A stretch of DNA of 64,000 bases from a phage (PZ445446.1), one strand, 5' to 3'. Shown: positions 14,490 through 28,276, counted from the stretch's first letter. Notes: a model not told the origin generated them from the sequence alone. Numbers and translations are program-made.

Positions 14490-14797
14490 TATTTTAAGTT
14501 ATCAGATTGCCAGAGATCAGGAGGATTTCTAAAATGGATTTCCTCCTTTTGATATTTTACCTACCAGGATATTTTAAAATCCTTAGAAAATCAGAAAATG
14601 GATCGAAAACTAAAATGGATTTTTCAGAGCAGGCACGACGAGATGAACCACTCATCCTATCGTCTGCACCATATTCCAGACCACCATTACAGATTTCCCG
14701 CACATGCTCACACCCTTCTACTAGAACTTCCCCCACTTACCCTTGACCTTTTATAGTAATAATCCAACCACTACCTTGAAGTTGTGGCGCAGCTTTC

Positions 14798-14990
14798 CAA
14801 GTACTCGATCTGTTTTTCGTTTCAAAGATTGAATTTTCTGAAAATTTTTCTCGATAAATTTCTCAGTACTCGATCTGTTTTTCGTTTTCTGAATCGGATT
14901 TTCTGGAAATCGTTCCGGCTCTCGACCTGAAATTTTTGGGGACGAAATCGATTTTTCGTTTTCAGAAATGGATTTTTAAAATTTCTATAT
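14798..14990. repeat. about three imperfect tandem copies of a ~66-bp unit (iteron-like)
   Basis: AGTACTCGATCTGTTTTTCGTTT perfect at 14800-14823 and 14865-14888; degenerate third copy; AAAATGGATTT recurs nearby. Confidence 0.6.
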
Positions 14991-15117
14991 GGGAATATTT
15001 TAGTGGATACTATTTTATAGGAAATTGTTACGGAGGATAATTAGCGTGCTAATTAAATTTATTAAATGCGAGGAGTTCTCATTTAGAATTTTGAATGATA
15101 ATCATTCTCGTTTGCAG

Positions 15118-15165
15118 AATAACGGGCAGGCCCGGTGATTGTCTCCCGGCCCCTACTGCCCCGGC
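15118..15165 (+). repeat. GC-rich structured element copy A
   Basis: GGGCAGGCCCGGTGATTGTCTCCCGG...; homologous to 15255 and inverted copy at 24225. Confidence 0.5.
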
Positions 15166-15254
15166 TTGTTATTATAGTAACACACAGGACAAAGAAAGCA
15201 AGAAGTTTTTGCATAAATTTTTAGACGATAATGATAATCGTTCTCATTTCATGC

Positions 15255-15300
15255 AGCGCCCATCCCCGGTGGTTGTCTCCCCCGTCACCGGTGCCTGCCG
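15255..15300 (+). repeat. GC-rich structured element copy B
   Basis: CCCCGGTGGTTGTCTCCCCCGTCACCGGTGCCTGCCG; internal CCGGTG/CACCGG stem. Confidence 0.5.
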
Positions 15301-15353
15301 TCCTTTCGATAGGTATATTTTGCCACCTGGCGGGGCCGCTGTCAACACTTTTC

Positions 15354-15367
15354 AAAAAAAAAAAAAA
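15354..15367 (+). repeat. A14 homopolymer tract
   Basis: 14 consecutive A in non-coding region. Confidence 0.7.
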
Positions 15368-15509
15368 TTCTAACCTGATGCGCTGACCGCTGCAACCTGG
15401 CGGGGCCAGCCTGGCAGGGCCTAACTGACCAGGTAGGAGAGAATGAAGGCTTGCAAACCTGGTGGGCCTATGCTATAGGATAGGTAACAATTGAAGAGGA
15501 GGTACAAAA

Positions 15510-15646
15510 ATGGAAGGTAATATGATCCCCCTGGTTGAAAAGGCTATGGCGGGAGCGTTGGAACATAAAGAAGAGTACGAAAAAATGATGGTTAACCTGG
15601 CAGGGGCGGCGGCTGGAGAATTCTACCCAAAAAATAATTTTAACTA
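15510..15646 (+). CDS. small hypothetical protein (45 aa)
   Basis: GAGGAGG RBS 6 nt before ATG; below track cutoff; read by eye. Confidence 0.35.
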
Positions 15647-15650
15647 ATGG

Positions 15651-15679
15651 TTGACAGCTCGGACAGTTCTTGTTATTCT
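15651..15679 (+). promoter_or_regulatory. sigma70-like promoter candidate
   Basis: TTGACA 15651-15656, 17-bp spacer, TATTCT. Confidence 0.4.
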
Positions 15680-15732
15680 TATCCTCACAAGGTGAACAAC
15701 ACCACACCAATTAACAGAGAGGATAAAAAATC

Positions 15733-15930
15733 ATGAACGCCTACGGAATTAAAGTACGTCGCAACACTCGCCAGGTGGTCACCAATCAAGTGATTTGCCG
15801 GGTGGATGTAACCATCAACAACGGGCAAGGCCTTTATAAATTTCGTCGCGGTCATAGCTATACCCTGCAACAGCTTAACCGTTGCGCCCTGACAAAAGGT
15901 CAGATCAACCACTGGTTTAATAAAAAATAA
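15733..15930 (+). CDS. hypothetical protein
   Basis: ORF track 65 aa; leader GAGAGGATAAAAAATCATG. Confidence 0.55.
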   Translation: MNAYGIKVRRNTRQVVTNQVICRVDVTINNGQGLYKFRRGHSYTLQQLNRCALTKGQINHWFNKK

Positions 15931-15932
15931 TG

Positions 15933-15961
15933 TTGACATATGGTCTGACACAAAATACACT
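15933..15961 (+). promoter_or_regulatory. sigma70-like promoter candidate
   Basis: TTGACA 15933-15938, 17-bp spacer, TACACT. Confidence 0.4.
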
Positions 15962-15993
15962 GAAATCACAAAAGACACTAAGAGGATAAAATC

Positions 15994-16392
15994 ATGAAAA
16001 CCACTACCTTTAATTTTGATAATGCGGACTTTTCTTTTTCTGATGTCAAGAACTGCCGCCGTGATCGTGGATTTTACAAGGCTTATAATCTGGTGGGCCT
16101 GGACGATGACAATAATTTGCACGAAGTAGCTGAGATCCGGTATTATGCCGCCGCCAGTGGTAACACTCACTACTGCGTGTTTTGGATTCACGACAACAAG
16201 AACAATAAGTACGGTTATACTGGCGGCAAGGCGAGCGGTCACGGTTACGATAAAGCTAACGCAGCACTTGAGAGCGCATTAAATGCTATGGGGATCACTG
16301 CCGACGGCTGGATCTACGAAGAAGAGTTTTTGTCGGCACTTGCTGACCACCTGGGCTATAAAAAGCACATTGTGACATGCGCCCACGAATAA
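15994..16392 (+). CDS. hypothetical protein
   Basis: ORF track 132 aa; leader AGAGGATAAAATCATG. Confidence 0.55.
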   Translation: MKTTTFNFDNADFSFSDVKNCRRDRGFYKAYNLVGLDDDNNLHEVAEIRYYAAASGNTHYCVFWIHDNKNNKYGYTGGKASGHGYDKANAALESALNAMGITADGWIYEEEFLSALADHLGYKKHIVTCAHE

Positions 16393-16398
16393 AAATCA

Positions 16399-16427
16399 TT
16401 GACACGCTGCAAAATTTAAGTAAACTA
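16399..16427 (+). promoter_or_regulatory. sigma70-like promoter candidate
   Basis: TTGACA 16399-16404; followed by leader hairpin GGCGGGAATGTTTCCCGCC. Confidence 0.4.
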
Positions 16428-16475
16428 GACACAAAAGGCGGGAATGTTTCCCGCCAGCACAAAGGAAAAAAGATC

Positions 16476-16871
16476 ATGAATAAGAACGTACGCCGCATCA
16501 TGAACGAACTGGCAAACGATGAAAAAATTATTGACATGCATTTAGTCAACATTTGCCGCCGTTGTGTAACATATAACAACCGCGCCGCAAAAGCGCGTGA
16601 GATGAACGCAAAAGGCACCTTAAAGCCCTTTCAGGTGGTTGTAAAATCTATAACCAGTGCAGCAGGCCAGGCGCATGACCACAACAACGGGAGCACTAAT
16701 ATTGATCCGTCTTACGTAATGAAACGGATCCGGACTTGCAAGAATAAAGAGCAGGTGTATAATGTCATAGACTGGTTGGATTCTATGGGCGATGTGGTTT
16801 ACAATAGGTTTTCTGCAGCTATCGAGATCCAGCTTGACAGGTTGGACGGTAAAGTACTGAAAACTTACTAA
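16476..16871 (+). CDS. hypothetical protein
   Basis: Track ORF 16377..16871 trimmed to ATG 16476 after AAAGGAAAAAAGATC leader. Confidence 0.5.
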   Translation: MNKNVRRIMNELANDEKIIDMHLVNICRRCVTYNNRAAKAREMNAKGTLKPFQVVVKSITSAAGQAHDHNNGSTNIDPSYVMKRIRTCKNKEQVYNVIDWLDSMGDVVYNRFSAAIEIQLDRLDGKVLKTY

Positions 16872-16918
16872 GATTATTTTTAGATGGCCTTGACTTCAGG
16901 GCCATCAATAAAGTAAAC
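16872..16918 (+). promoter_or_regulatory. repeated palindromic TTGAC cassette, copy 1
   Basis: GATTATTTTTAGATGGCCTTGACTTCAGGGCCATCAATAAAGTAAAC directly after stop codon; ATGGCC/GGCCAT inverted repeat around TTGACT. Confidence 0.5.
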
Positions 16919-16951
16919 TAATCCCAGTTAAGCGAAAAAGGAGGCTTGAAG

Positions 16952-17071
16952 ATGAGCACTACACGCCAACACACAAAGGTAACGATTATCGTTTGCATCA
17001 TTGGTTACATCCTGGCGCAAATGTTGATGGGTAGCGCCAATGATTTCGCAAAATTTTTCTTAGACTTTTAA
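16952..17071 (+). CDS. small hydrophobic peptide (39 aa)
   Basis: Strong AAAAAGGAGG RBS 5 nt before ATG; hydrophobic core IIVCIIGYILAQMLM; read by eye. Confidence 0.45.
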   Translation: MSTTRQHTKVTIIVCIIGYILAQMLMGSANDFAKFFLDF

Positions 17072-17072
17072 T

Positions 17073-17100
17073 TGACAAGCTAACTTAAATCAGTATAATA
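17073..17100 (+). promoter_or_regulatory. sigma70 consensus-like promoter
   Basis: TTGACA 17073-17078, 15/16-bp spacer, TATAAT 17094-17099. Confidence 0.5.
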
Positions 17101-17151
17101 CTAAGCACATAAACGGGAAAACTTCCCAGAACACCAAAAGGAGAAAACATT

Positions 17152-17502
17152 ATGAATACTTCCATCACTATGACCGCCGAAGAAAAAGCCCTGCAGATCG
17201 CCGCTCTGAAAAAACAGATTGCAGAACTTGAAGACAAGATCGACAATTTTGAAATCGACGAAGACAAGTACGACGATAAATATGATGAATGGTTAGACGA
17301 GATCTACGGCGAAATTATGATCGGAAACATTTCTTTTCTTCCGTCGCGTATCCTCAAGGAGCTAGATCCTATCGCTTACCGCTGCGGATTTAGCGACTAC
17401 ATCGACAGCCTGGATATTGAGGACGATGAAGAATACCAGGAATTACAGACAGAGTTAGAAGAAGCAAAAGAAGAGCTTGCAGAACTGGAAGAAAACGAGT
17501 AA
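17152..17502 (+). CDS. hypothetical acidic coiled-coil protein
   Basis: ORF track 116 aa; AAAGGAGAAAACATTATG leader; very acidic. Confidence 0.55.
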   Translation: MNTSITMTAEEKALQIAALKKQIAELEDKIDNFEIDEDKYDDKYDEWLDEIYGEIMIGNISFLPSRILKELDPIAYRCGFSDYIDSLDIEDDEEYQELQTELEEAKEELAELEENE

Positions 17503-17550
17503 GATTATTTTTAGATGGCCTTGACTCCAGGGCCATCAATAAAGTAAACT
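17500..17550 (+). promoter_or_regulatory. repeated palindromic TTGAC cassette, copy 2
   Basis: Near-identical to 16872..16918; directly after stop codon. Confidence 0.5.
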
Positions 17551-17591
17551 TTATACTGTTAACACTGAACTAATGCATAGGAGTTAAAACC

Positions 17592-17837
17592 ATGGCAGCA
17601 CTAATCACCAAATATTATGCCCCTACCAACACCAAAAGCGCCCGTATCATGGTAAAAGGCTTCGGACGTAAAAAGGTGTACACCTGGGATTATGCCTTAG
17701 ACACGGAAGACAACTACACCAACGCGATGACCGATTTTATTAATGATCTGAACACGCGGATCTTGACAAATTATAAAATTACCGATATTGCCTATATAGG
17801 GGAAGGCGGGATCTGTTTTGTCGGTATCGTCAAATAA
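17592..17837 (+). CDS. hypothetical protein
   Basis: ORF track 81 aa; AGGAG RBS. Confidence 0.55.
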   Translation: MAALITKYYAPTNTKSARIMVKGFGRKKVYTWDYALDTEDNYTNAMTDFINDLNTRILTNYKITDIAYIGEGGICFVGIVK

Positions 17838-17839
17838 GC

Positions 17840-17885
17840 TGTTTTTTCGGTGGTCCTGGTAGCAGGGCCATCTATAAAGATAGTT
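17840..17885 (+). promoter_or_regulatory. variant of repeated palindromic cassette
   Basis: TTTTTTCGGTGGTCCTGGTAGCAGGGCCATCTATAAAGATAG; shares CAGGGCCATC..ATAAAG core. Confidence 0.35.
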
Positions 17886-17912
17886 TATCAATACAATGAA
17901 AGGAGAAAGTAC

Positions 17913-18266
17913 ATGATCAGCGGGGCAAGTTTTATTATTGGCGCTATTGCTACGGCTTTAATTGTAAACAAGATCCAATCTAAAAACGAAAAAGATAGCA
18001 ACGCCCTTACAGAATACCCGTTTTGGGTATTCAACGACAATGAAGACTATATTATCAAGTACAAGAATGAGAAGGGCGACCAGGTAACACCGCGACCGAT
18101 CCCGGCTTACAAGATGCAAGAAACACTATACCGCCTAAAGGCTGGAGGCGCAAAAATCGTAGACTTTTGGGGATACGATCACACAGATCAGGAAGTTATA
18201 AAGCGCCGTATCCGGGCTATTCAGGCCAATATTGAAGTTAGCAAGGGGGGAATATATGAAGATTAA
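17913..18266 (+). CDS. hypothetical protein with N-terminal TM segment
   Basis: Track ORF trimmed to ATG 17913 after AAAGGAGAAAG. Confidence 0.5.
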   Translation: MISGASFIIGAIATALIVNKIQSKNEKDSNALTEYPFWVFNDNEDYIIKYKNEKGDQVTPRPIPAYKMQETLYRLKAGGAKIVDFWGYDHTDQEVIKRRIRAIQANIEVSKGGIYED

Positions 18267-18453
18267 TTTTGAGAAGATTGTAAAGCGATCTCATGCTTCC
18301 GAAGAGCTGCCGGAACGCCGCCAGCGCAACAATAAACTGAATAAGCCAAAAAGATTTGGGAAGATCTGGCGGAATCATTATGATCGCAAATTACCGGGCC
18401 TGCTTTTGGAACGTGAACGACAGGCGGAACGATACCGCCACAAAGGCAAATAA
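18256..18453 (+). CDS. small basic protein
   Basis: Track ORF trimmed to ATG 18256 after AAGGGGGG; Arg/Lys-rich. Confidence 0.4.
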   Translation: MKINFEKIVKRSHASEELPERRQRNNKLNKPKRFGKIWRNHYDRKLPGLLLERERQAERYRHKGK

Positions 18454-18460
18454 CAACCAA

Positions 18461-18490
18461 CGCCCCGCCATTGTGCGGGGCTTTTTATTT
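18461..18490 (+). terminator. intrinsic terminator
   Basis: CCCCGCCATTGTGCGGGG hairpin then CTTTTTATTT. Confidence 0.6.
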
Positions 18491-18634
18491 CTATCCTACA
18501 AATAGCGCCCCTGGTTGGCCCTGTAAGCGCCAAAAAGGCCCCACCTATGCAATCGCCCCCCTTTAACCTGAAAACATCGCTTAGGGCCGTTTTATGGCGT
18601 TAAAAATATCATTGACAGTGATTTTATTTAAAGC

Positions 18635-18662
18635 TTGACATCTTAAACAGGTTAGCTATACT
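18635..18662 (+). promoter_or_regulatory. sigma70-like promoter candidate
   Basis: TTGACA 18635-18640, 16-bp spacer, TATACT; second TTGACA at 18612. Confidence 0.45.
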
Positions 18663-18694
18663 AACCACATCAAAGAGAGAAAGGAGTAAACGCC

Positions 18695-18943
18695 ATGCGT
18701 AAATTAAAAAATTTTGATAAAGTTGATGTTGTCCTGAATAATTTTTACTACTGCAACAACAAGGCCATTTGGTGGCGTGATAGTTCCACCGATAAAGTCA
18801 AGGCGCGCTTTCTCCAGGGGCACTGGCAAGGCCGCCCAGTGATTAAAATCATGGGGCAATTGGTAGCGTTTAAAAATTGCCGCCGTGTTGATGACGTTGA
18901 AGAGATCTTGAATATTTTACGCCACAATAATTTAAAAAAATAG
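18695..18943 (+). CDS. hypothetical protein
   Basis: ORF track 82 aa; GAGAAAGGAG leader. Confidence 0.55.
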   Translation: MRKLKNFDKVDVVLNNFYYCNNKAIWWRDSSTDKVKARFLQGHWQGRPVIKIMGQLVAFKNCRRVDDVEEILNILRHNNLKK

Positions 18944-18945
18944 TG

Positions 18946-18973
18946 TTGACAAGTAAATCTCAATAAGTATACT
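18946..18973 (+). promoter_or_regulatory. sigma70-like promoter candidate
   Basis: TTGACA 18946-18951, 16-bp spacer, TATACT; followed by leader hairpin GGCGGGAAGTTTTCCCGCC. Confidence 0.45.
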
Positions 18974-19030
18974 TAAGCACACAGGCGGGAAGTTTTCCCG
19001 CCACTAACAAAGAAAATAGGAGAAAATATC

Positions 19031-19654
19031 ATGACCACCGTTAACATTACCACAGGTTGCAATTTATCTTTCGACGTGCTGACCGATGAACAAAAAGAAA
19101 AAGCTATTGAAATGGTCCGCGAAAGAGAAGAACACAGCGGAGAGGATTTTTTCGCAGAAAGTGTAATTGAATATTATAAAGAACAAGTTTTTCCAGAGTA
19201 CGGCCTTGAAGATACCGATGTACATTGGTCCGGCTTTTGGTGTCAAGGCGATGGCGCGTCAATTAGTGCTGAAAATGTAGACTTAGAGAAATTCTTGCGT
19301 AAAGTCAAGGCCCTGACCAAGTTCCGATCAATTCGTCACTTGTTCGGAACAATGCACGATGGCGAACTATCAGCCAGTGTTGAACGCGACAAGTACAGCC
19401 ATTACAGCCATGAAAACACTGTAAGCGGATATATTGATACTACCTGGCTAGATCTGACCGCAAAACAAGAAAATAAAGTAGAAGATCTGGAAGAGCTGAT
19501 CACCGAGACGGTACGGGAGCTATCCCGCAAGGTTTATGTAGACCTGGAGGAGGCCTATCTTGAACAGTTTACTACCGAAAACCTGATCGGCCTTATTGAA
19601 GCCAATGATTGGCGGTTTGATGTGGATGAATATGGAGAAATGAGTTTTTCATAA
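19031..19654 (+). CDS. hypothetical acidic protein
   Basis: ORF track 207 aa; GGAGAAAATATCATG leader. Confidence 0.6.
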   Translation: MTTVNITTGCNLSFDVLTDEQKEKAIEMVREREEHSGEDFFAESVIEYYKEQVFPEYGLEDTDVHWSGFWCQGDGASISAENVDLEKFLRKVKALTKFRSIRHLFGTMHDGELSASVERDKYSHYSHENTVSGYIDTTWLDLTAKQENKVEDLEELITETVRELSRKVYVDLEEAYLEQFTTENLIGLIEANDWRFDVDEYGEMSFS

Positions 19655-19745
19655 ATAAAGTGTTGCAATAATCTAAAAACCTGCTATATTAAAACTTAAG
19701 GGGGAGAGATGACTTGCCCCCACACAAAACAAAGAGGAAAACATC

Positions 19746-20126
19746 ATGAAAAACACTACTAAAGCTATTGACACCGTTATGTTTAACCTGGTTACATTCC
19801 GTGAAGATATGAAAGATCTTCCACGTGAAACAGTGTGCGACCATATCGAAAACTATCGCAAACTAATCAAAGAGTTGCCTTTAAAACGTGACCAGTACGC
19901 GGCTAACGCTATGCTTAACGCCATGATCAAGAAAATGATTCAGTGCGATTTGACTTTAGCTTATGATTATGCAGGTGGTCGTTTTGCAGTATACAATCAG
20001 CCCGTGCCTGGTATGAGCACCACAGAAGAATTGCACGCGTTAAATCTAAAACAAGACGTATGGGATAACATGCCCCGCGTGGTGGTGTGGGCAGAAAGCG
20101 GAAAGATTTACGGCGATAATTTTTAA
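19746..20126 (+). CDS. hypothetical protein
   Basis: ORF track 126 aa; AAAGAGGAAAACATCATG leader after hairpin. Confidence 0.6.
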   Translation: MKNTTKAIDTVMFNLVTFREDMKDLPRETVCDHIENYRKLIKELPLKRDQYAANAMLNAMIKKMIQCDLTLAYDYAGGRFAVYNQPVPGMSTTEELHALNLKQDVWDNMPRVVVWAESGKIYGDNF

Positions 20127-20190
20127 TCAGGTAACAGGCGGCATATTTGCCGCCTTATTGTTAAACAGAACTGCAAAAGAGGTACATAGA

Positions 20191-20562
20191 ATGGAATTTA
20201 TTATTTTGGCTGTAGTAGTTGCCTTGTTCAACGCCTGGATCGCTGGCAAGATGGGTAGATCCGCTTTTCTATGGTTTGTTATATCTATTTTCCTGGGAGT
20301 GGTTGCAACTATTGTATTGGTTATCCTTGCAATTGTTGACAAGGGGAATAATAGAAAGGGTAAAGTATTTTCAGACCTGTACGACGCTCAAACGTTTGTC
20401 AACGCCTATTATAGTGATCTTCCAGTCTCCCTACGCTGCAGCCTGGCACAACAGGTTTTTGATGAGGCTAAAACCAGAGACCAAGCCCATGAGATATGTT
20501 TAACTGAGGCGGATCGCCTATTTGAGAGGAATAGAAAATATGTGGACCAGCCGTTTAAATAA
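20191..20562 (+). CDS. hypothetical membrane protein (two predicted TM helices)
   Basis: Track ORF trimmed to ATG 20191 after AAAAGAGG; hydrophobic stretches. Confidence 0.5.
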   Translation: MEFIILAVVVALFNAWIAGKMGRSAFLWFVISIFLGVVATIVLVILAIVDKGNNRKGKVFSDLYDAQTFVNAYYSDLPVSLRCSLAQQVFDEAKTRDQAHEICLTEADRLFERNRKYVDQPFK

Positions 20563-20781
20563 TGCCACGTTAATTAACCCCTTTAGTGAAGATTTGAAGC
20601 CAGCCGCCTGGCGGGATGGATTCAATAACGAAAGCTTTATTTTCAGGCCTGATCTTAAGGAATTTTATAACAATGGATCGAACAACGACAGAGATAATTT
20701 TTCTTGTAATGTGCGTGGTGATAATACTCCTGGGGGCCATTGCAAACCACGTCACTGCTAACAGGAGGAAAGGGGGAGACG

Positions 20782-20901
20782 ATGACACCCAAGGATAAGC
20801 CCCGCACCGATAAGGCGCGCCGTGTTATGGTATGGCTTGAGATCATCGCCCTTGAAATATTGTTAGGCGTAGGGATGTATTTTATCGCTGTAAGTAACTG
20901 A
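20782..20901 (+). CDS. small membrane peptide (39 aa)
   Basis: AGGAGGAAAGGGGG RBS; C-terminal hydrophobic segment; read by eye. Confidence 0.3.
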   Translation: MTPKDKPRTDKARRVMVWLEIIALEILLGVGMYFIAVSN

Positions 20902-21040
20902 TAACGGCCCCGATCCCTGGGGCCTAACTTTTCAAATTTTTTCTCCCTGAGTGTTGCAATCCGATCCAGAATATGGATAATAACAATCAACGGGGAGACA
21001 CTCCCCACCGCATAGACAAAGTTCCAAAAGGAGAAACAAA

Positions 21041-21241
21041 ATGAGCAACAATATCCGCGTTATTAACTTCAAAAAAGAAGAAAAAATTGCCGTGCTGATT
21101 GACGGTCAAGAAATCTTTAAAGGTGATTATGAAGATCATCAAACGGCGATTAGTATCACTCGCGTGATTGGTTACCATAATTTTTACCCTCAAGGCGCTG
21201 AGGCAGCAGTAAAACGAATTAAAGAGATTGTAGGCCTGTAA
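21041..21241 (+). CDS. hypothetical protein
   Basis: ORF track 66 aa; AAAAGGAGAAACAAAATG leader after hairpin. Confidence 0.55.
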   Translation: MSNNIRVINFKKEEKIAVLIDGQEIFKGDYEDHQTAISITRVIGYHNFYPQGAEAAVKRIKEIVGL

Positions 21242-21290
21242 AATTTATTTTTAGATGGCCTTGACTCCAGGGCCATCAATAAAGTAAATT
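21241..21290 (+). promoter_or_regulatory. repeated palindromic TTGAC cassette, copy 3
   Basis: AATTTATTTTTAGATGGCCTTGACTCCAGGGCCATCAATAAAGTAAAT directly after stop codon. Confidence 0.5.
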
Positions 21291-21332
21291 TAAACCCTGT
21301 TAAAATAATCAGTGCAAAAAGGAGTAATGATC

Positions 21333-21632
21333 ATGTTTATCCAGGCTAATAATCTTTATTTCTTTGATGGTCAGATCGTAGACGGCGTGGAGGTGGAAAT
21401 CACCGGGTGCCCTGGCGGTCAGGTTATGACTTTTCGGAATAATGCCTTTGATGATTCTCATATCGTTATGAGAATGGAAGTTAGTAAGCTGGATGACAAG
21501 AAAACACTTATCGACTATTCCGTCAAAGATCATCCAGACTACCACATGATCTATGGTGATTTGTGCATTGTTGACCGTGACAAGGTGGGCGGCATTGTGA
21601 TCGCTATTGTGAACGATGTTTTCTCAAACTAA
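21333..21632 (+). CDS. hypothetical protein
   Basis: Track ORF trimmed to ATG 21333, 8 nt after AAAAAGGAG. Confidence 0.5.
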   Translation: MFIQANNLYFFDGQIVDGVEVEITGCPGGQVMTFRNNAFDDSHIVMRMEVSKLDDKKTLIDYSVKDHPDYHMIYGDLCIVDRDKVGGIVIAIVNDVFSN

Positions 21633-21649
21633 TTTCAGCAGGTGATTTT

Positions 21650-22000
21650 ATGAAAGTAAAACTATATTACCTTAATGAGCTTAACCCCCTTGCCCAGGTC
21701 CGCGCCCTGGCTAATACCTTGATTTGTGAGAAATCTGTATATTGTGTTGAGCTTAACGCCATGCGTGAACGTCTCAAAGGTGGTTACTTTGACATCCATG
21801 CTGCAATCAACGGCCTGAATATGGAATTTATCCGCTTACGTAACAGCCGCCAGAATCTGGCAAGAATGGAACAAGATCCGGCCCACCTTCGTAAGCTGGT
21901 TATTGAAAATCATCTGATGTTTAATGCCGATGGTGATTATTACCATTTTCACCGCAAACGCTGGTACCGTGGCGGCAATACAGGCAAGAATGCAAAATAA
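21650..22000 (+). CDS. hypothetical protein
   Basis: ORF track 116 aa. Confidence 0.5.
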   Translation: MKVKLYYLNELNPLAQVRALANTLICEKSVYCVELNAMRERLKGGYFDIHAAINGLNMEFIRLRNSRQNLARMEQDPAHLRKLVIENHLMFNADGDYYHFHRKRWYRGGNTGKNAK

Positions 22001-22036
22001 GGCCCCAGGCAGGGCCTGCAGCGATATAATCACATA

Positions 22037-22070
22037 AAGGCTATGCGGTTGCATGGCCTTTATTATTTTA
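22037..22070 (+). terminator. intrinsic terminator candidate
   Basis: GGCTATGCGGTTGCATGGCC hairpin followed by TTTATTATTTT. Confidence 0.45.
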
Positions 22071-22201
22071 GCGTTACAGCGGCCCCAAGGCGCTTAAAAA
22101 ATTTTTAAAGAAGTACTTGCATCAAGTCCTACAATATGGATAATAGGACGTGTCAGGGGGGCGGCCCCCAATCATTAACCGGATAGATAGGAGTTAAAAT
22201 C

Positions 22202-22486
22202 ATGGCTATTGTCACCGTTGGCGATGTAGTGGAAATGGAAGCAAAATACTTAAAAGCGGGTATGCATATCCTACGGAATGATCAAGAATTGTTATTAACG
22301 ATGGTAGACTATAATCCCGGCCAGGATTATCCAAGCATCGACTACTTTTTTGAGTATGTTGATGAAGAATTGAAAGAGGATGAGGCTTATCAGGGTGAAT
22401 TCTGCAATTTCTTTTGCCCTGATGAGGTTGTAAAAGTTATCTATCAACCTGGAGTACCTTTCCCGCTGCACGCTATCAATAAATAA
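22202..22486 (+). CDS. hypothetical protein
   Basis: ORF track 94 aa; AGGAGTTAAAATCATG leader. Confidence 0.55.
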   Translation: MAIVTVGDVVEMEAKYLKAGMHILRNDQELLLTMVDYNPGQDYPSIDYFFEYVDEELKEDEAYQGEFCNFFCPDEVVKVIYQPGVPFPLHAINK

Positions 22487-22540
22487 ACCTGGTGGGGCCG
22501 AAAAGGCCCCAATTATGAAAATAAAGAGAGGTAAATCATC

Positions 22541-22774
22541 ATGATGGAACAAATTAAACGCGCTGAGTCTATTAATGGCAATGTGATCTATTTTGTCAGC
22601 AAAAACGAAAAAGGCGTACCATATGCGGCGGTAATAGTACAACCTGACGGCGATTATTGGTTTACTGTGTACGGCGCTTATTCTTTTGGGCGTCCGGTGC
22701 ATGATAGAATTTTGAAAGTAGCGAACCCTACCGGGAAAAATATTACAGCAGAAAAATTTTTTGAAAATAGTTGA
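22541..22774 (+). CDS. hypothetical protein
   Basis: ORF track 77 aa; AAAGAGAGGTAAATCATCATG leader. Confidence 0.55.
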   Translation: MMEQIKRAESINGNVIYFVSKNEKGVPYAAVIVQPDGDYWFTVYGAYSFGRPVHDRILKVANPTGKNITAEKFFENS

Positions 22775-22798
22775 CATGACCATATAAGACTGTAGAAT
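22771..22798 (+). promoter_or_regulatory. sigma70-like promoter candidate
   Basis: TTGACA 22771-22776, 16-bp spacer, TAGAAT. Confidence 0.45.
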
Positions 22799-22850
22799 AT
22801 AAATCAAAGGGGGCAACAAGCCCCACCAACCACAAAGAGGATAAAAAATC

Positions 22851-23030
22851 ATGGCTATTATTGCAAAGACTGAGATCGTAGGCTTAGATTCTATTCTCCT
22901 CGCATATGAGGAAGCTATAGAAATGTATGTGGTTTCCTATGGTGAATATATCCGTGAATATAAATCTATTGATCTGGCTTTTGAATGTTATATTCGCCAG
23001 GTTAATAAAGCGTACGATGATTATCGTTAA
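22851..23030 (+). CDS. small hypothetical protein (59 aa)
   Basis: Leader AAAGAGGATAAAAAATCATG after GGGGGCAACAAGCCCC hairpin; below track cutoff; read by eye. Confidence 0.4.
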   Translation: MAIIAKTEIVGLDSILLAYEEAIEMYVVSYGEYIREYKSIDLAFECYIRQVNKAYDDYR

Positions 23031-23120
23031 AATAGCTTGACAACAAACAACCATCTAACAAAGCATAATACATAAGGCGGTGGAATGGTCCGCCACCTGG
23101 AACAAGAAGAGGAAAACAAG

Positions 23121-23225
23121 ATGAAACAGAAATTAATTGATGCGGTGATCCTGGTTATTGCCCTGGGTATTGGCCTGATTGCAACCATGTCTAATATGAT
23201 CTTGTCTTCCAACGGTATCGGGTGA
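23121..23225 (+). CDS. small hydrophobic peptide (34 aa)
   Basis: Leader AAGAAGAGGAAAACAAGATG; sequence VILVIALGIGLIATM; read by eye. Confidence 0.35.
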   Translation: MKQKLIDAVILVIALGIGLIATMSNMILSSNGIG

Positions 23226-23234
23226 GGTTGGCAA

Positions 23235-23450
23235 ATGATCACTAACAAAACAGGCAAAACAGAATTTTTACGCAACTTACAGATCGGCAAGCCTGAGATC
23301 TGGTATTGCACTAAAACACCACGTGACGAAATGAAAGACTTCACCGCCACGCTGCAACGGGTAAAGATATCCATCACGCAGAAAAAGGCCTTATTAGTGG
23401 TGGAAGGTGAGATCCCCCAAACCGTTGTTATAGTTGGGCGTACAGCATAG
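23235..23450 (+). CDS. hypothetical protein
   Basis: ORF track 71 aa. Confidence 0.45.
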   Translation: MITNKTGKTEFLRNLQIGKPEIWYCTKTPRDEMKDFTATLQRVKISITQKKALLVVEGEIPQTVVIVGRTA

Positions 23451-23541
23451 TTTAATTTATACCGATACCCGAAAATTAACCAACAAAGCATAAACAGGCG
23501 GTTACCGCCGCCTTAAACGTAGCAGAAAGAGGATAGACACA

Positions 23542-23826
23542 ATGAAAAAGATGATCGCAGTGGTTGCCCTGGTTGTTGGACTTAATGCGCCTGTAATGGC
23601 TAAAGAGCTGGCAAAAGAGGTTAATCTAACGGATATTCATGCCGTCAATCAAATAGGGGTTACTTATCGCTTATGCCTTGCCGCTAAAACTTTTAAGGAC
23701 GGCACGACAGAGTACTACGGATTCGAGGGTATCCGGTGCGGTGAGCTTGCTCGCGACCTTAAGGAAGATCCAGACCTGGAAGATCTGCCCATAACCGTGA
23801 ACGGGAAAACTTACGTAAACCGTTAA
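23542..23826 (+). CDS. hypothetical secreted protein
   Basis: ORF track 94 aa; N-terminal signal-peptide-like MKKMIAVVALVVGLNAPVMA. Confidence 0.55.
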   Translation: MKKMIAVVALVVGLNAPVMAKELAKEVNLTDIHAVNQIGVTYRLCLAAKTFKDGTTEYYGFEGIRCGELARDLKEDPDLEDLPITVNGKTYVNR

Positions 23827-23975
23827 CCATGAGAAAGATAATTATCACCTTGGGGATTGTGGCGGGATCGCTGGCGCTCTTTCCCCTTATGGTTAGATAT
23901 GTGCTGATCAGTATTGTCCTGATAGTCAGTGATCTATTGGAAACGGTTGGCACCTTGTTTTAAAGAGCGGTAAAA

Positions 23976-24167
23976 ATGAATATCGAACAAGTTAGAAAGG
24001 TATTAGCAGTACTGCGTTATCATAATCATAGAAAGGTTATAGACGATCCTGATTATGTTGATTCAAGTCTGGAAGGGGATACACTGCAAGCCATAAGCAA
24101 CATGCAAGAATTGCTAAAGCGCATGACAGAGAAAAACCGACCGGACTACATAGGCGAAAAAATATAA
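23976..24167 (+). CDS. hypothetical protein
   Basis: ORF track 63 aa. Confidence 0.45.
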   Translation: MNIEQVRKVLAVLRYHNHRKVIDDPDYVDSSLEGDTLQAISNMQELLKRMTEKNRPDYIGEKI

Positions 24168-24185
24168 TCCTTATAAACTACAAAA

Positions 24186-24212
24186 CAGGGCTTGCAATGG
24201 TCCTGTTTTTTG
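24186..24212 (+). terminator. intrinsic terminator candidate
   Basis: ACAGG..CCTGT stem followed by TTTTTTG. Confidence 0.4.
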
Positions 24213-24224
24213 TTATACTTGTTT

Positions 24225-24273
24225 CACGGCAGGCACCTGGCGACGGGGGGAGACAATCACCGGGTGTGCCTGC
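24225..24273 (-). repeat. GC-rich structured element copy C (inverted relative to A/B)
   Basis: Reverse complement closely matches 15262..15300; contains GCAGGCAC/GTGCCTGC stem. Confidence 0.5.
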
Positions 24274-24295
24274 TATATAAAAATTATAAAAACCG

Positions 24296-24324
24296 TTGAC
24301 ATCTGCCAGGTGGTGGGGTAGCAT
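24296..24324 (+). promoter_or_regulatory. sigma70-like promoter candidate
   Basis: TTGACA 24296-24301, 17-bp spacer, TAGCAT. Confidence 0.4.
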
Positions 24325-25540: not shown

Positions 25541-25560
25541 TTTTTTAACTGAATTATCAA

Positions 25561-25584
25561 GGGGCTTAGGCCCCTTTCTTTTTG
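25561..25584 (+). terminator. intrinsic terminator
   Basis: GGGGCTTAGGCCCC hairpin followed by TTTCTTTTTG. Confidence 0.6.
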
Positions 25585-26189
25585 TCTGCTCTTCTCCTAC
25601 CATAAACGGCCCTACCTGGCAAGTGGAATAATTGACTAGCCATCAATCCCACATACTGTACAAATATACATGGAAAATAACTATTGCATAATTTTTCATT
25701 GTGTGGTAGCAAGTCCATTTTTACCCGTTTTCTCTCCCAAAAGTGCACGTAATGCCGCTATTGCACAAATTTTAACCTGATGCACATCTCCAATATCTTG
25801 TCAACAACTAAAAATCTTTATAAGTCATACACTTACACAGCATCGAAAGCGTGTTCTACGCGAAAAATCGAGTATAACTATAGCCGCCAGATCTCAGAAT
25901 TCACGTACGCACGCCATTCTATAGCCTGCAAAGTATTTATTCCAACCACAGAATAACGGAATAGTCAATACCTGCATAAAATAATTATTCGTGTAAACTG
26001 CATAACATAAATCAGCTCAGGTGTCAACATTTTTCGTAAACAGTCCGAAATTATCACGATGAGCTATCATAAACAGAGAAATATTTAGTCGTCTAATGTT
26101 TACTGTACATTACTATACTGACTGGAATCATTAGATGACTAAGAGAAAGATAAGAAATAATTAATAATGTAATTATTTTACCTGTAACA

Positions 26190-26500
26190 ATAAGGCAACT
26201 ATGCAAACGAATGGCATGGCGCGACGGAGTCGCGACATAATATAAAAGCAGTAACCATCACCCCCGTGATAGTTTGTCTGCAAACTATTAATCAGATCAT
26301 AGTTGCCTTGTATTTAGTTAATCATGACATAACAAGCAAGGCAACTATAGATCTTCTAATAGTTGCCCTGCTTTTATATTATGTCATAGGAACGCCCGAA
26401 GGGGTGACCTAGTCACCTGGTATAGCCAGCGAAAGATTATTAACTTGTCGATTGTTATCTTGTTAATTGTTTTCATGCAAACGAATGGCATGGCTTATCA
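26190..26500. repeat. cluster of inverted and direct repeats in non-coding DNA
   Basis: AAGGCAACTAT at 26192 and 26338 with inverted ATAGTTGCC(T/C)T at 26299 and 26359; 20-bp direct repeat ATGCAAACGAATGGCATGGC at 26201 and 26475. Confidence 0.6.
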
Positions 26501-28060
26501 TCTATGCGTGAACAGTGAGGCATGCAATAGTAACAATTGTTATTGTATCCAGTGTGTTGAGTATGCCCAGTGTGTCACTATTATGTCATATTATGTCACA
26601 GTATGTCAGACAAGTTTTCCTCCTCTTTGTCAAGTGCTGCATGAAAAATTTACAAGCTTGTATGGTAGCATTTTTGCGGCCCTGTTTACATTCAGTGTTG
26701 TATGTATAATCCTTGTTGTGTGGGCGTTTAGACGTCTGGACGGTCAGAAGTTTGCAGGTCAATATCTAATCTATTGGCTGCTAACTATATCCCCCACAAA
26801 TAATAAGAAATATAATTGTTATGTGCGTAAACAGTAACCCATGTTATCAATCCCTGTATGTATCGCCAGTGGTGCGCATAATGGGTATTATGTTAAATTG
26901 CCCGTAATGATAACAGTTCTCACAATGATAGGTATTCTCATTCATCCACACAAAATAGGTTGCAAATGTTGTGCCACTGTGTGAACGGCCTGGCCTATTA
27001 ATTTCTCTCACTGCCTCGATATTTGAGAATTGTTATAAGAATGAGAAGTATTCCCATTCCGTCCGCCTGGCAGCACTCCAGTAGCTACCGGCTCCTGACA
27101 GGGCAGCACTCCTGTAGGTCAGGTCAAAATCGTGGTAGAATTGGGCCTGTTCAGATATTTCTGACTGACTCTTCAGATCTGTGTGGGAAAAGCCAACCTC
27201 TCCGGAGGGGCAGGGGAGGTCAATTAAAAAATTTACGTGGTGTATGAAGCGCTCTTCAGGTAAGGCATGTATTATGGGATGAAACCCTCTTCAGGCAATG
27301 ATATTTGTGGGTGTGATATTTGCTGGAAAGCCAGATATGACGGGACTCCCGGCGGGGATGGGGTAGTACAGACAGGGAAAATATGGGGATGTAGTTGGGT
27401 AAATTGATCAGACAGGTAGAGTATGGAATATGTTACAAGTATGTTAAATAGGGAGGATGAATATCTGCAGGATTTGTGTGTAAAATCAAAGACTTAAGTG
27501 GTGTTGTGGTATTTTCTATAAATAATTCAAGTTTAATAGGTAATATTTGTCTCTATCCACTTTGTGTGGTAAACAGATTCAGATGAAATTGGTTTACAAG
27601 TGTATACATAATATACAAATTAAAGATACAAGAAACCCCCCTCCCCCTTCGGCTACCATTCACCTTTTCCTCTGACTGGTACTTAAACACTTATTCAGAC
27701 TCTTCAGGTTATCACCCATATATCATATGGCAGTGACTGGTGTCCTCCGGCCCCTCTTTCGTCACCCGTCCGCTTCGCCATGCTAATGCCATAGCCAATG
27801 GTTCGGTTGTTCACTCTGTTCACTCAGGTGTATCTCCATACCCCTTCAAACCGAAGAGAACAGAAAACCCGAATTACTCGGTAAAAGAAAAGAGAAGAAC
27901 TTAATTTTATCAGGATAGGCAAGAATGTCAAGGCATGACTGCTCACTAAACAAGCAAACAGTCATGTGTGGAAGGTAAGTGATTGTGGTGGTGGGAAATT
28001 TAGTTGAAAGATGTGTTATAGGTGCGCTTCCAGCACTTTGGCCGGGCAGCTAATTGTGTG

Positions 28061-28276
28061 TCAGTCCAGCGGTTCATCCTCTACTTCACTGAAATCAATG
28101 TTCATGGTCTCCTCCCAACCATCGATCTCAGCACAAGAGTGGAGTTCTTTAGGGTTTACTCCCAAAGCCTCAGCAACAGAGTCTATATTTAACACCTCTG
28201 GCAGGTATGATTCATCGAATTCAAGGTAAATCAGGCCACGAGTGTTGTCAGCTCCACCAAATATCTCTATCTTCAT
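28061..28276 (-). CDS. small acidic protein
   Basis: ORF track 71 aa; GAGGAG RBS; starts MKIEI; D/E-rich. Confidence 0.5.
   Translation of the reverse strand: MKIEIFGGADNTRGLIYLEFDESYLPEVLNIDSVAEALGVNPKELHSCAEIDGWEETMNIDFSEVEDEPLD

Follow-up and report, generated by a model that had tools for sequence, protein, structure and literature searches.

Three copies of a GC-rich hairpin element in a 64,000-nt stretch of phage DNA (PZ445446.1; this whole stretch is called the window below) appear to be paralogues of a conserved non-coding early-transcription module present in rV5-like and phAPEC8/phi92-like phages. The module would consist of a sigma70-type early promoter whose −35 hexamer and spacer overlap a terminator-like hairpin, a GC-rich imperfect hairpin of ~50 nt with apical GGAGACAAnCACC, placed at or within ~10 nt of the transcription start, and, in most cases, one to four palindromes resembling the binding site of the host repressor Fur, starting ~45–65 nt downstream. 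The comparisons described here give good support to the view that this module is real, ancient, non-coding and regulatory and that it has the anatomy of promoter, 5′ hairpin and Fur-like operators. The arrangement that we prefer, in which the early RNAs are gated by Fur and may meet an antisense partner, is put forward tentatively.

Three copies of the element

Around both loci that carry the element the sequence shares 93–99.8% identity with Vequintavirus phages of Escherichia (rV5, MaxBurger, WalterGehring and others), and the identity of the window to Vequintavirus genomes is about 99%; the window is an rV5-like Vequintavirus of the strictly lytic type. In rV5 numbering the three-copy region runs from ORF 198 to P168, which lies within the long rightward unit of small early genes of rV5 (PMC3606486). 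The features on which the argument depends are as follows.

15118–15167, minus strand: copy 1 (type A), GC-rich hairpin element; core match, profile match at 15117–15148 (E = 7e-10), folds
15252–15304, minus strand: copy 2 (type B-like), hairpin element; core, repeat finder, type-B profile (E = 5.6e-9)
24224–24277, plus strand: copy 3 (type B), hairpin element; core, profile (E = 8.8e-17)
15174–15201, minus strand: P_rev1, predicted sigma70-type promoter; −35 TTGCTT at 15201–15196, 16-nt spacer, extended −10 TGT-TACTAT at 15182–15174
15317–15345, minus strand: P_rev2, predicted sigma70-type promoter reading into copy 2; TTGACA-17-CAAAAT with TG extension, from the consensus scan
24192–24219, plus strand: P_rev3, predicted promoter reading into copy 3; TTGCAA-16-(TGT)TATACT, from the consensus scan
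24182–24209, plus strand: terminator hairpin of the upstream plus-strand operon, overlapping P_rev3
15091–15109, no strand assigned: Fur-box-like palindrome 1, TTGAATGATAATCATTCTC; 15/19 (4 mismatches), second-best in 64 kb
15227–15245, no strand assigned: Fur-box-like palindrome 2, GATAATGATAATCGTTCTC; 17/19 (2 mismatches), matches on both strands

The original prediction had described three structured copies of ~45 bp, at 15118, 15255 and 24225, two direct and one inverted, which share a core and bracket most of the small-gene block. The three sites, their orientation and the bracketing of the block are borne out. The 14-mer core GGTGATTGTCTCCC is exact in copies 1 (15134–15147, +) and 3 (24248–24261, −) and has one mismatch in copy 2 (15268–15281, +). 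With up to two mismatches allowed, the window contains four core matches against 0.38 expected, and four or more were reached in 0 of 100 shuffles; the fourth match, at 20993 with two mismatches, is not a member of the family. A profile made from 19 copies out of nine or more phage lineages detected only the three sites (E = 7e-10, 8e-9 and 1.6e-4; next match E = 0.42), and no fourth copy was found with it in the 64 kb.

The repeat finder paired arms 15119–15147 and 24248–24276 (29 nt, 86% complementary) and arms 15247–15283 and 24246–24282 (37 nt, 76% complementary), and direct reading gave ~41 nt common to copies 2 and 3, CCCGGTGrTTGTCTCCCCC(C)GTCrCC(A)GGTGCCTGCCGT, with ~36/41 identical. 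Copies 2 and 3 are evidently close paralogues. Copy 1 matches the others over its 5′ ~30 nt only (GAATAACGGGCA...CCGGTGATTGTCTCC) and differs in its 3′ half, so that a length of ~45 bp was slightly generous for it. The cores of copies 1 and 2, which stand in tandem, are 134 nt apart.

Predicted promoters upstream of the copies

On the GGAGACAAnCACC strand, which is opposite to the strand originally read, a predicted sigma70-type promoter is located 6–16 nt upstream of every copy. To place it, 25 instances were anchored on GGAGAC (the reverse complement of the core as first read) and the best sigma70 match in the 80 nt upstream was taken; the automatic pick fell at the same place, with a spacing of 16–18 nt, in 23 of them, and the same promoter was recognised by eye in the other two. 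The place of P_rev1 is the best pick in nearly all lineages. P_rev2 is kept in rV5 and in the related locus L087 and has the homologue TTGACG-17-CATAAT in CR8, while the TGTTAYNCT and −35 of P_rev3 are kept in ukendt, KKP_3264, CR8, POP15, EspYZU15 and the loci L141 and L138. The scan of CR8 returned, besides TTGACG-17-CATAAT, TTGCAA-17-TATATT (−), which is the equivalent of P_rev1, and TTGACT-18-TATCCT (+).

The alignment of the copy-1 locus from 11 phages gives the clearest picture. Between the element and the next conserved block its invariant columns are 15199–15201, 15178–15179, 15174 and 15167, which on the minus strand correspond to the TTG of the −35 hexamer, to T1, A2 and T6 of the −10 hexamer (TAnnnT) and to an A seven bases after the −10; the neighbouring column 15168, a C conserved in at least 90% of the sequences, completes a CA at the expected start. 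The 16–17-nt spacer cannot be aligned between genera. Conserved hexamers at a spacing of 16–18 nt, separated by a drifting spacer, are thus present on the reverse strand, and the pattern looks like the footprint expected of a working promoter. Since this promoter is directly upstream and several bases of its hexamers and its start base are invariant, the repeat is most likely the 5′-terminal hairpin of an early transcript; at copy 1 the predicted RNA would begin at A15167 (−) and read ...GGGAGACAAUCACC... At copy 3, and at copy 1 of CR8, a terminator-like hairpin shares sequence with the −35 and spacer, which suggests that each module begins a fresh transcript. At copy 3 the predicted gene-sense leader, ACGGCAGGCACCUGGCGACGGGGGGAGACAAUCACCGGGUGUGCCUGC, is followed by P168 (24296–24324), annotated as a promoter in rV5, and then by the next gene (ATG 24381). 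In the rV5 genome paper all promoters predicted here are on the plus strand (rightward), and the element goes unmentioned (PMC3606486).

A sigma54 promoter (TGGCAC...TGCA) was considered for type B and rejected, the spacing being 2 nt short by eye and the motif absent in Vequintavirus. A small open reading frame or leader peptide after GGGAGA was likewise rejected for want of a conserved start codon.

Fur-box-like palindromes and possible forward promoters

On the other side of the element there are palindromes matching the 19-bp Fur consensus GATAATGATAATCATTATC, in its 7-1-7 form TGATAATnATTATCA. The site at 15227–15245 is the only one in the window with three or fewer mismatches (0.01 expected), and it and the site at 15091–15109, the two best matches in the window, adjoin copies 2 and 1, respectively, at 37–45 nt from the cores. 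The central part of palindrome 1, TGA.AAT.ATTCTC, is invariant in the 11 phages. Palindrome 2 comes close in its core to the Fur box that precedes E. coli ryhB, a sequence fetched for comparison and nearly identical to the box. We therefore treat these palindromes as putative Fur operators and infer, from their match to the consensus, that Fur may bind there.

When 18 related loci were scanned at up to five mismatches, Fur-like sites were found beside the element in 15, with up to four in tandem in Certrevirus and phAPEC8-like phages. They are 37–45 nt from the core at copy 1 and ~45–55 nt from it at copy 3 of two Certrevirus loci. The three loci with no site at this threshold are copy 3 of ukendt, of KKP_3264 and of L141. 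Copy 3 of EspYZU15 (Seunavirus) has two boxes seen by eye only, and copy 3 of phAPEC8-like phages has a different palindrome, TGATAR-N7-CTATCA.

The palindromes coincide with possible promoters of the forward strand. Palindrome 1 forms the spacer of TTGAAT(15091)-18-CAGAAT(15115–15120), and palindrome 2 overlaps the −10 GATAAT (15233–15238) of a promoter with −35 TTGCAT (15209–15214) at 18-nt spacing. Protein-binding sites, one of the possibilities raised originally, are accordingly likely as far as the flanking Fur-like boxes are concerned and only putative for the GC-rich core itself. What that first reading of the elements missed is their context, namely the sigma70 promoter on the opposite strand and the Fur-box-like operators on the other side.

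RNA structure and strand

The predicted fold of every copy consists of two helices, an outer and an inner one, and the conserved core occupies the apical loop and its surroundings; for copy 3 the folding z-score is −2.6 on the plus and −3.8 on the minus strand. In the type-B alignment 82.8% of cells pair, compared with 31–48% in slid controls, the structure having been derived from the same sequences as the pairing test. One clean A-U to G-C exchange is seen in the outer helix. Structured RNA, as originally proposed, is plausible on the strength of the folds and the pairing, with the reservation that covariation is not significant (see below).

The folding energies are about equal on both strands and do not discriminate between them. 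Of seven variants of the inner helix, four are fully paired, by way of G-U, when read on the GGUG strand, and none when read on the opposite one; these wobble pairs slightly favour the strand read from the Fur-box side, so that an antisense RNA from there is possible, and there is a hint that both strands may be transcribed. Neither strand was flagged as having the intrinsic-terminator form of GC stem plus U tract, the tails being UAUUCUG, UAUAUAAAAA and CUUGUUAUUAU. Rfam gave no gathering-level match in the 64 kb, and a permissive E-value, applied to the window region and eight related loci, gave chance matches elsewhere.

Conservation among phages

Matches to the copy-1 locus came from 264 phage records and matches to the copy-3 locus from 217, representing several genera. 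Vequintavirus, Certrevirus, Seunavirus, Phapecoctavirus and Justusliebigvirus all have both loci, set 9–10.6 kb apart in an unchanged relative orientation; Mydovirus also keeps the copy-1 locus. The comparison with related genomes called for originally covers at least six genera in two subfamilies, Vequintavirinae and Stephanstirmvirinae, and upholds the conservation. The loci read were those of CR8, phiTE, KaOmega and POP15 (Certrevirus), GAP31, KE22 and EspYZU15 (Seunavirus), KB57 (Mydovirus), 18-1-2 (Avunavirus), W70 (unclassified Vequintavirinae), ukendt (Phapecoctavirus), KKP_3264 (Justusliebigvirus) and several uncultivated contigs. In ukendt ~9.4 kb separate the two loci and in CR8 10.6 kb, with the relative orientation seen in the window, and this constancy rules out a scar of recent rearrangement.

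Only Vequintavirus has copy 2; at its position other genera have a different, very conserved block of ~100 nt, called element 2 below. In an Aeromonas phage (Plateaulakevirus) the promoter and Fur boxes are kept and the leader is different. Beyond these phages the searches added little. An IMG/VR scan with the 15-mer CGGTGRTTGTCTCCC gave 120 loci, nearly all chance matches (a prophage gene, unrelated), with only L058, L077 and L087 relevant; a metagenome scan with the type-B pattern gave 7 true relatives among 108 loci and almost no added diversity. The scan of 185,579 bacterial genomes (596 Gb) with CCGGTGNTTGTCTCCSSS returned only scattered, chance-level matches in unrelated taxa, and no E. 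coli homologue was found by BLAST against 5,426 complete genomes, where the single match was at chance level (E = 3). No paper of the searchable literature contains the motif strings, and none describes the element, or small RNAs or Fur boxes in Vequintavirinae.

A proposed Fur-gated early module and its alternatives

In the mechanism that we prefer, modules 1 and 2 would fire leftward (−) into a lineage-specific repeat region, and module 3 would fire rightward (+), providing a leader ahead of P168 and the next early operon. The hairpin would form the 5′ end of these early RNAs, and host Fur, bound to the adjacent boxes, would gate them. Bound Fur might simply block elongation as a roadblock. 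Alternatively, and this is the option that we favour, Fur may repress a weak convergent promoter inside the box, whose transcript (the GGUGAUUGUCUCC strand) would be antisense to that of the leader; when iron is scarce, this RNA and promoter collision would then jointly lower the amount of leader-bearing transcripts. Copy 3 of Vequintavirus would have lost its own Fur box, and the type-B copy 2, placed behind the best box, could supply the antisense RNA in trans, which is an evolutionary argument. Transcription, binding of Fur, the antisense RNA, the regulatory outcome and the function are all inferred here from the comparison of sequences.

Among the closest parallels to such an arrangement are cis-antisense pairs. 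In RNA-IN/RNA-OUT of IS10 and RNA II/RNA I of ColE1, face-to-face promoters give RNAs with overlapping 5′ ends. Here too, two promoters would converge on a GC-rich hairpin of ~50 nt, each RNA would begin with the complement of the other, and one side would point to a repeat region or gene while the other would be a short regulator. Unlike in those systems, only one of the two promoters is well supported, there is no homology, and control would come from a host repressor that senses metal, not from copy number or Dam methylation.

Several observations weigh against this mechanism. All the promoters are predictions; the forward ones are weak and below the scan threshold, with −35 hexamers that match at 3/6 or are unconserved in 4 of 11 lineages, and there is no obvious gene for the leftward RNAs of modules 1 and 2 to express. 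A canonical Fur box was not found, in the scan at up to five mismatches, at copy 3 of Vequintavirus or of phAPEC8-like phages, and at copy 3 of Certrevirus a 30-nt insert separates the Fur box from the element; moreover, positions of +45 to +140 would be unusual for repression. To the common origin of structure and pairing test mentioned above must be added that 69 of 500 shuffles gave at least as many pairs with a change on both sides as the two observed, and 51 of 500 at least the observed covariation score (not significant), in a test resting on ~6 independent lineages, and that KKP_3264 and EspYZU15 have uncompensated changes in the outer helix. Finally, two outer-helix changes in type A favour the reverse strand and so counterbalance what the wobble pairs suggest for the forward one.

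A leader acting in cis only would do without the antisense partner: the 5′ hairpin would stabilise the early RNA, modify the polymerase by put-like antitermination or attenuate, and the Fur-like boxes would act separately, for instance as a decoy that titrates Fur from many genome copies and thereby derepresses host iron uptake. The promoter footprint, which sets the hairpin at +1 to ~+50, suits this explanation, as do the hairpin- and terminator-like repeats (D1 family) in which the small-gene block is rich and which the polymerase must pass, and the up to four tandem Fur-like boxes of Certrevirus and phAPEC8-like phages. The putL/putR sites of HK022 are two-stem structures of ~70 nt, and nutL/nutR of lambda consist of boxA plus boxB; like them, the elements considered here are short structured RNA elements, two to three per genome, just downstream of early sigma70 promoters and in varied orientation. 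Unlike them, a single bipartite hairpin is predicted, with neither the two-stem put architecture nor a boxA (CGCTCTTA-like) and boxB pair, and two of the three copies, those of modules 1 and 2, are directed away from all genes. Among the many early promoters only 3 have the element, and no U tract follows the hairpin. We consider this explanation unlikely. The CTTTACA repeats near the element lie upstream of the promoter, outside the RNA.

Trans-acting small RNAs (sRNAs) regulated by Fur and read from the strand of the original prediction (GGUGAUUGUCUCC) would make copies 1 and 2 a tandem pair and copy 3 a third gene, the exposed loop UUGUCUCC pairing at low iron with host or phage mRNAs at the ribosome-binding-site-like GGAGACAA. 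There is a likeness to ryhB and to prrF1-prrF2 of Pseudomonas: a 19-bp Fur-box palindrome stands next to a short non-coding structured sequence, directly upstream of both copies 1 and 2, and these copies are in tandem at 134-nt spacing, each with its own box, as in prrF1-prrF2. The wobble pattern of the inner helix also favours the forward strand, and copy 3, on its own strand, is followed by an A/U-rich stretch and a bidirectional hairpin (24209–24182) with UUUU. However, this hairpin is the only one of its kind, since the scan found no terminator after copies 1 and 2 on the plus strand, and the copy-3 hairpin of Certrevirus has no U tract on the strand that the sRNA would use. The forward promoters are weak or unconserved, and the strongly conserved opposite-strand promoter, downstream of whose start the Fur boxes lie, unlike those of ryhB and prrF, is left unexplained. 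The elements resemble neither RyhB nor any Rfam family, no complementary target was found in the window beyond the copies themselves, and the carrier is a strictly lytic phage, not a host chromosome. Taken together, these points make sRNA genes unlikely.

It is less likely again, and in our opinion improbable, that the elements act as DNA, with a protein of phage or host binding to the core (GGTGnTTGTCTCC, near-palindromic as GGnGA-N3-TCnCC) and to CCAGGTGCC and the left locus serving as a replication origin activated or primed by the leftward promoters, the hairpins being cruciforms or single-strand initiation signals. The core sequence is indeed better conserved than the helices, lineage-specific iteron-like repeats with GATC adjoin module 1 in every genus, and the spacers of early promoters carry CCAGGTGG, which resembles the 3′ part of the element. 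Nevertheless, DnaA boxes were not found near the repeats, copy 3 has no adjoining repeats in Vequintavirus, and the published skew switches only at changes in transcription direction (PMC3606486). The repeat-rich non-coding region of 2.6 kb at 25.6–28.1 kb is a better candidate for an origin, and the wobble-compatible changes would be unexplained. As for a remnant of a mobile element or rearrangement boundary, also among the original suggestions, the inverted pair 9.1 kb apart does bracket the small-gene block as inverted repeats around a 9-kb cassette would, but the loci, spacing and orientation are the same in two subfamilies, no transposase, integrase or target-site duplications are present (nor are such genes annotated in the rV5 locus) and the promoter hexamers and Fur boxes are conserved within the units and not decaying, so that it can hardly be maintained.

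Returning to the Fur-gated module, the presence of Fur sites beside an early promoter and hairpin suggests that these phages read the iron status of the host. In its general form, namely that strictly lytic phages of enterobacteria, in two subfamilies, have made Fur part of the control of their earliest transcription, as a sense/antisense switch, or titrate Fur with multi-copy boxes, this idea is doubtful on the present data. If it is true, the promoter–hairpin–Fur switch would let host iron adjust early expression, or transcription into a possible origin rich in repeats, or else the multi-copy boxes would derepress host iron uptake for the benefit of the phage. A module that links early promoter, leader hairpin and Fur operators would offer a clear example of a nutrient signal in the host being sensed by a virulent phage, and iron is limiting in the gut and in infection. 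The rV5-like and phAPEC8-like phages are common in therapy and biocontrol collections, and their early regulation is little understood.

Annotation of the region

The hypothetical protein ORF 198 of rV5 (DQ832317), whose coordinates 2295–2573 in the rV5 locus record (L001) correspond to 15095–15373 of the window, overlies copies 1 and 2 and the Fur boxes. Pfam gave no match for it, the open frames over the element vary in length and frame between genera, with no conserved frame, and the conserved columns are those of promoter hexamers and palindromes, not codons; ORF 198 is, for these reasons, most likely an annotation artefact. This would correct a hypothetical-protein annotation that has been propagated through many genomes. 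The minus-strand gene W70_22, annotated downstream of the module (L130, 1172–1411), is an open frame across iterons and is not credible either. The phiTE escape locus with ToxI-like 36-nt tandem repeats (pseudo-ToxI) at 106,714–106,772 (PMC3475682) was considered as a possible link and set aside; the element of phiTE is at ~39.6 kb, is not tandemly repeated and belongs to a different locus.

Neighbouring repeats and other observations

The leftward transcripts of modules 1 and 2 would run into the following feature.

14791–14976, no strand assigned: three repeats of 65–74 bp in tandem, GTACTCGATCTGTTTTTCGTTTT, which contain GATC, belong to families D3 and D8 and lie downstream of the predicted leftward transcripts

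The repeats to the left of module 1 differ by genus, being GGGTCTCGATCG in phiTE, GAAAAACCTCTCAAGTTC in W70 and a set of its own in ukendt. Those at 14791–14976 look iteron-like, and no DnaA boxes were found near them.

A second repeat-rich region, at 25560–28100, contains 2.6 kb with no credible genes between convergent units and corresponds to the non-coding box of the rV5 paper. Its repeats include TGTCATATTA (3.5 copies at 26573–26608), ATAGTTGCC (three copies at ~26290–26370) and TGCAAACGAATGGCATGGC (at 26203 and 26477). Four weaker Fur-like palindromes (26908–26940 and 27024–27058) are followed by the GC-rich direct repeat GGCAGCACTCC(A/T)GTAG at 27068–27118. It is possible that this is an origin or packaging region.

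The D1 family is a 51-nt intergenic repeat at 16869–16919, 17500–17550, 17835–17885 and 21240–21290 with a GC hairpin, GATGGCC..GGGCCATC, whose loop holds TTGACT, with TAAACT 18 nt later. These repeats look like promoters with a palindromic spacer, akin to the terminator/promoter composite before copy 3. Between TTGAC(A/G) and the −10, a GC-rich spacer with CCAGGTGG or CCTGG (a Dcm site) is common to the early promoters of the group, as at 24296–24324, 15317–15345, 15450–15480 and ~1855–1885 of locus L123; these spacers resemble CCAGGTGCC of the type-B 3′ half. A tandem CTTTACAnnTCTTTACAAA stands just upstream of the −35 in several early promoters, in either orientation (L125 1312–1345, L128 ~1612–1645, L135 ~855–880, L133 ~648–668), and may be an UP-like element or a factor-binding site.

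Element 2, the block of ~100 nt that replaces copy 2 outside Vequintavirus, reads ACTACCGGCGATCCACCTTCCGACC...GTTAGCCCCGCCTTTTCGCCGTGGGGTGGCGT and is almost invariant across genera (L125 1340–1465, L123 1350–1470, L124, L126–L130, L132). It lies downstream of a conserved minus-strand promoter, forms a hairpin whose loop varies and which shows a single G-C to A-U exchange, and contains the core-like GGTGGCGTCTCC. With no Rfam match and no annotation, it is a candidate RNA; together with the repeat element it brings the structured RNA candidates that lack annotation in these genomes to at least two.

About 17 GenBank records named 'Campylobacter phage' (MG0656xx, host C. jejuni) are 95–100% identical to this region of E. 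coli Vequintavirus and are probably mislabelled or contaminant assemblies. Between the minus-strand promoter of copy 2 and the next rightward promoters there is a run of 14 A residues (15353–15367); the A tract of rV5 is shorter and interrupted, which indicates that the length of this homopolymer is variable.

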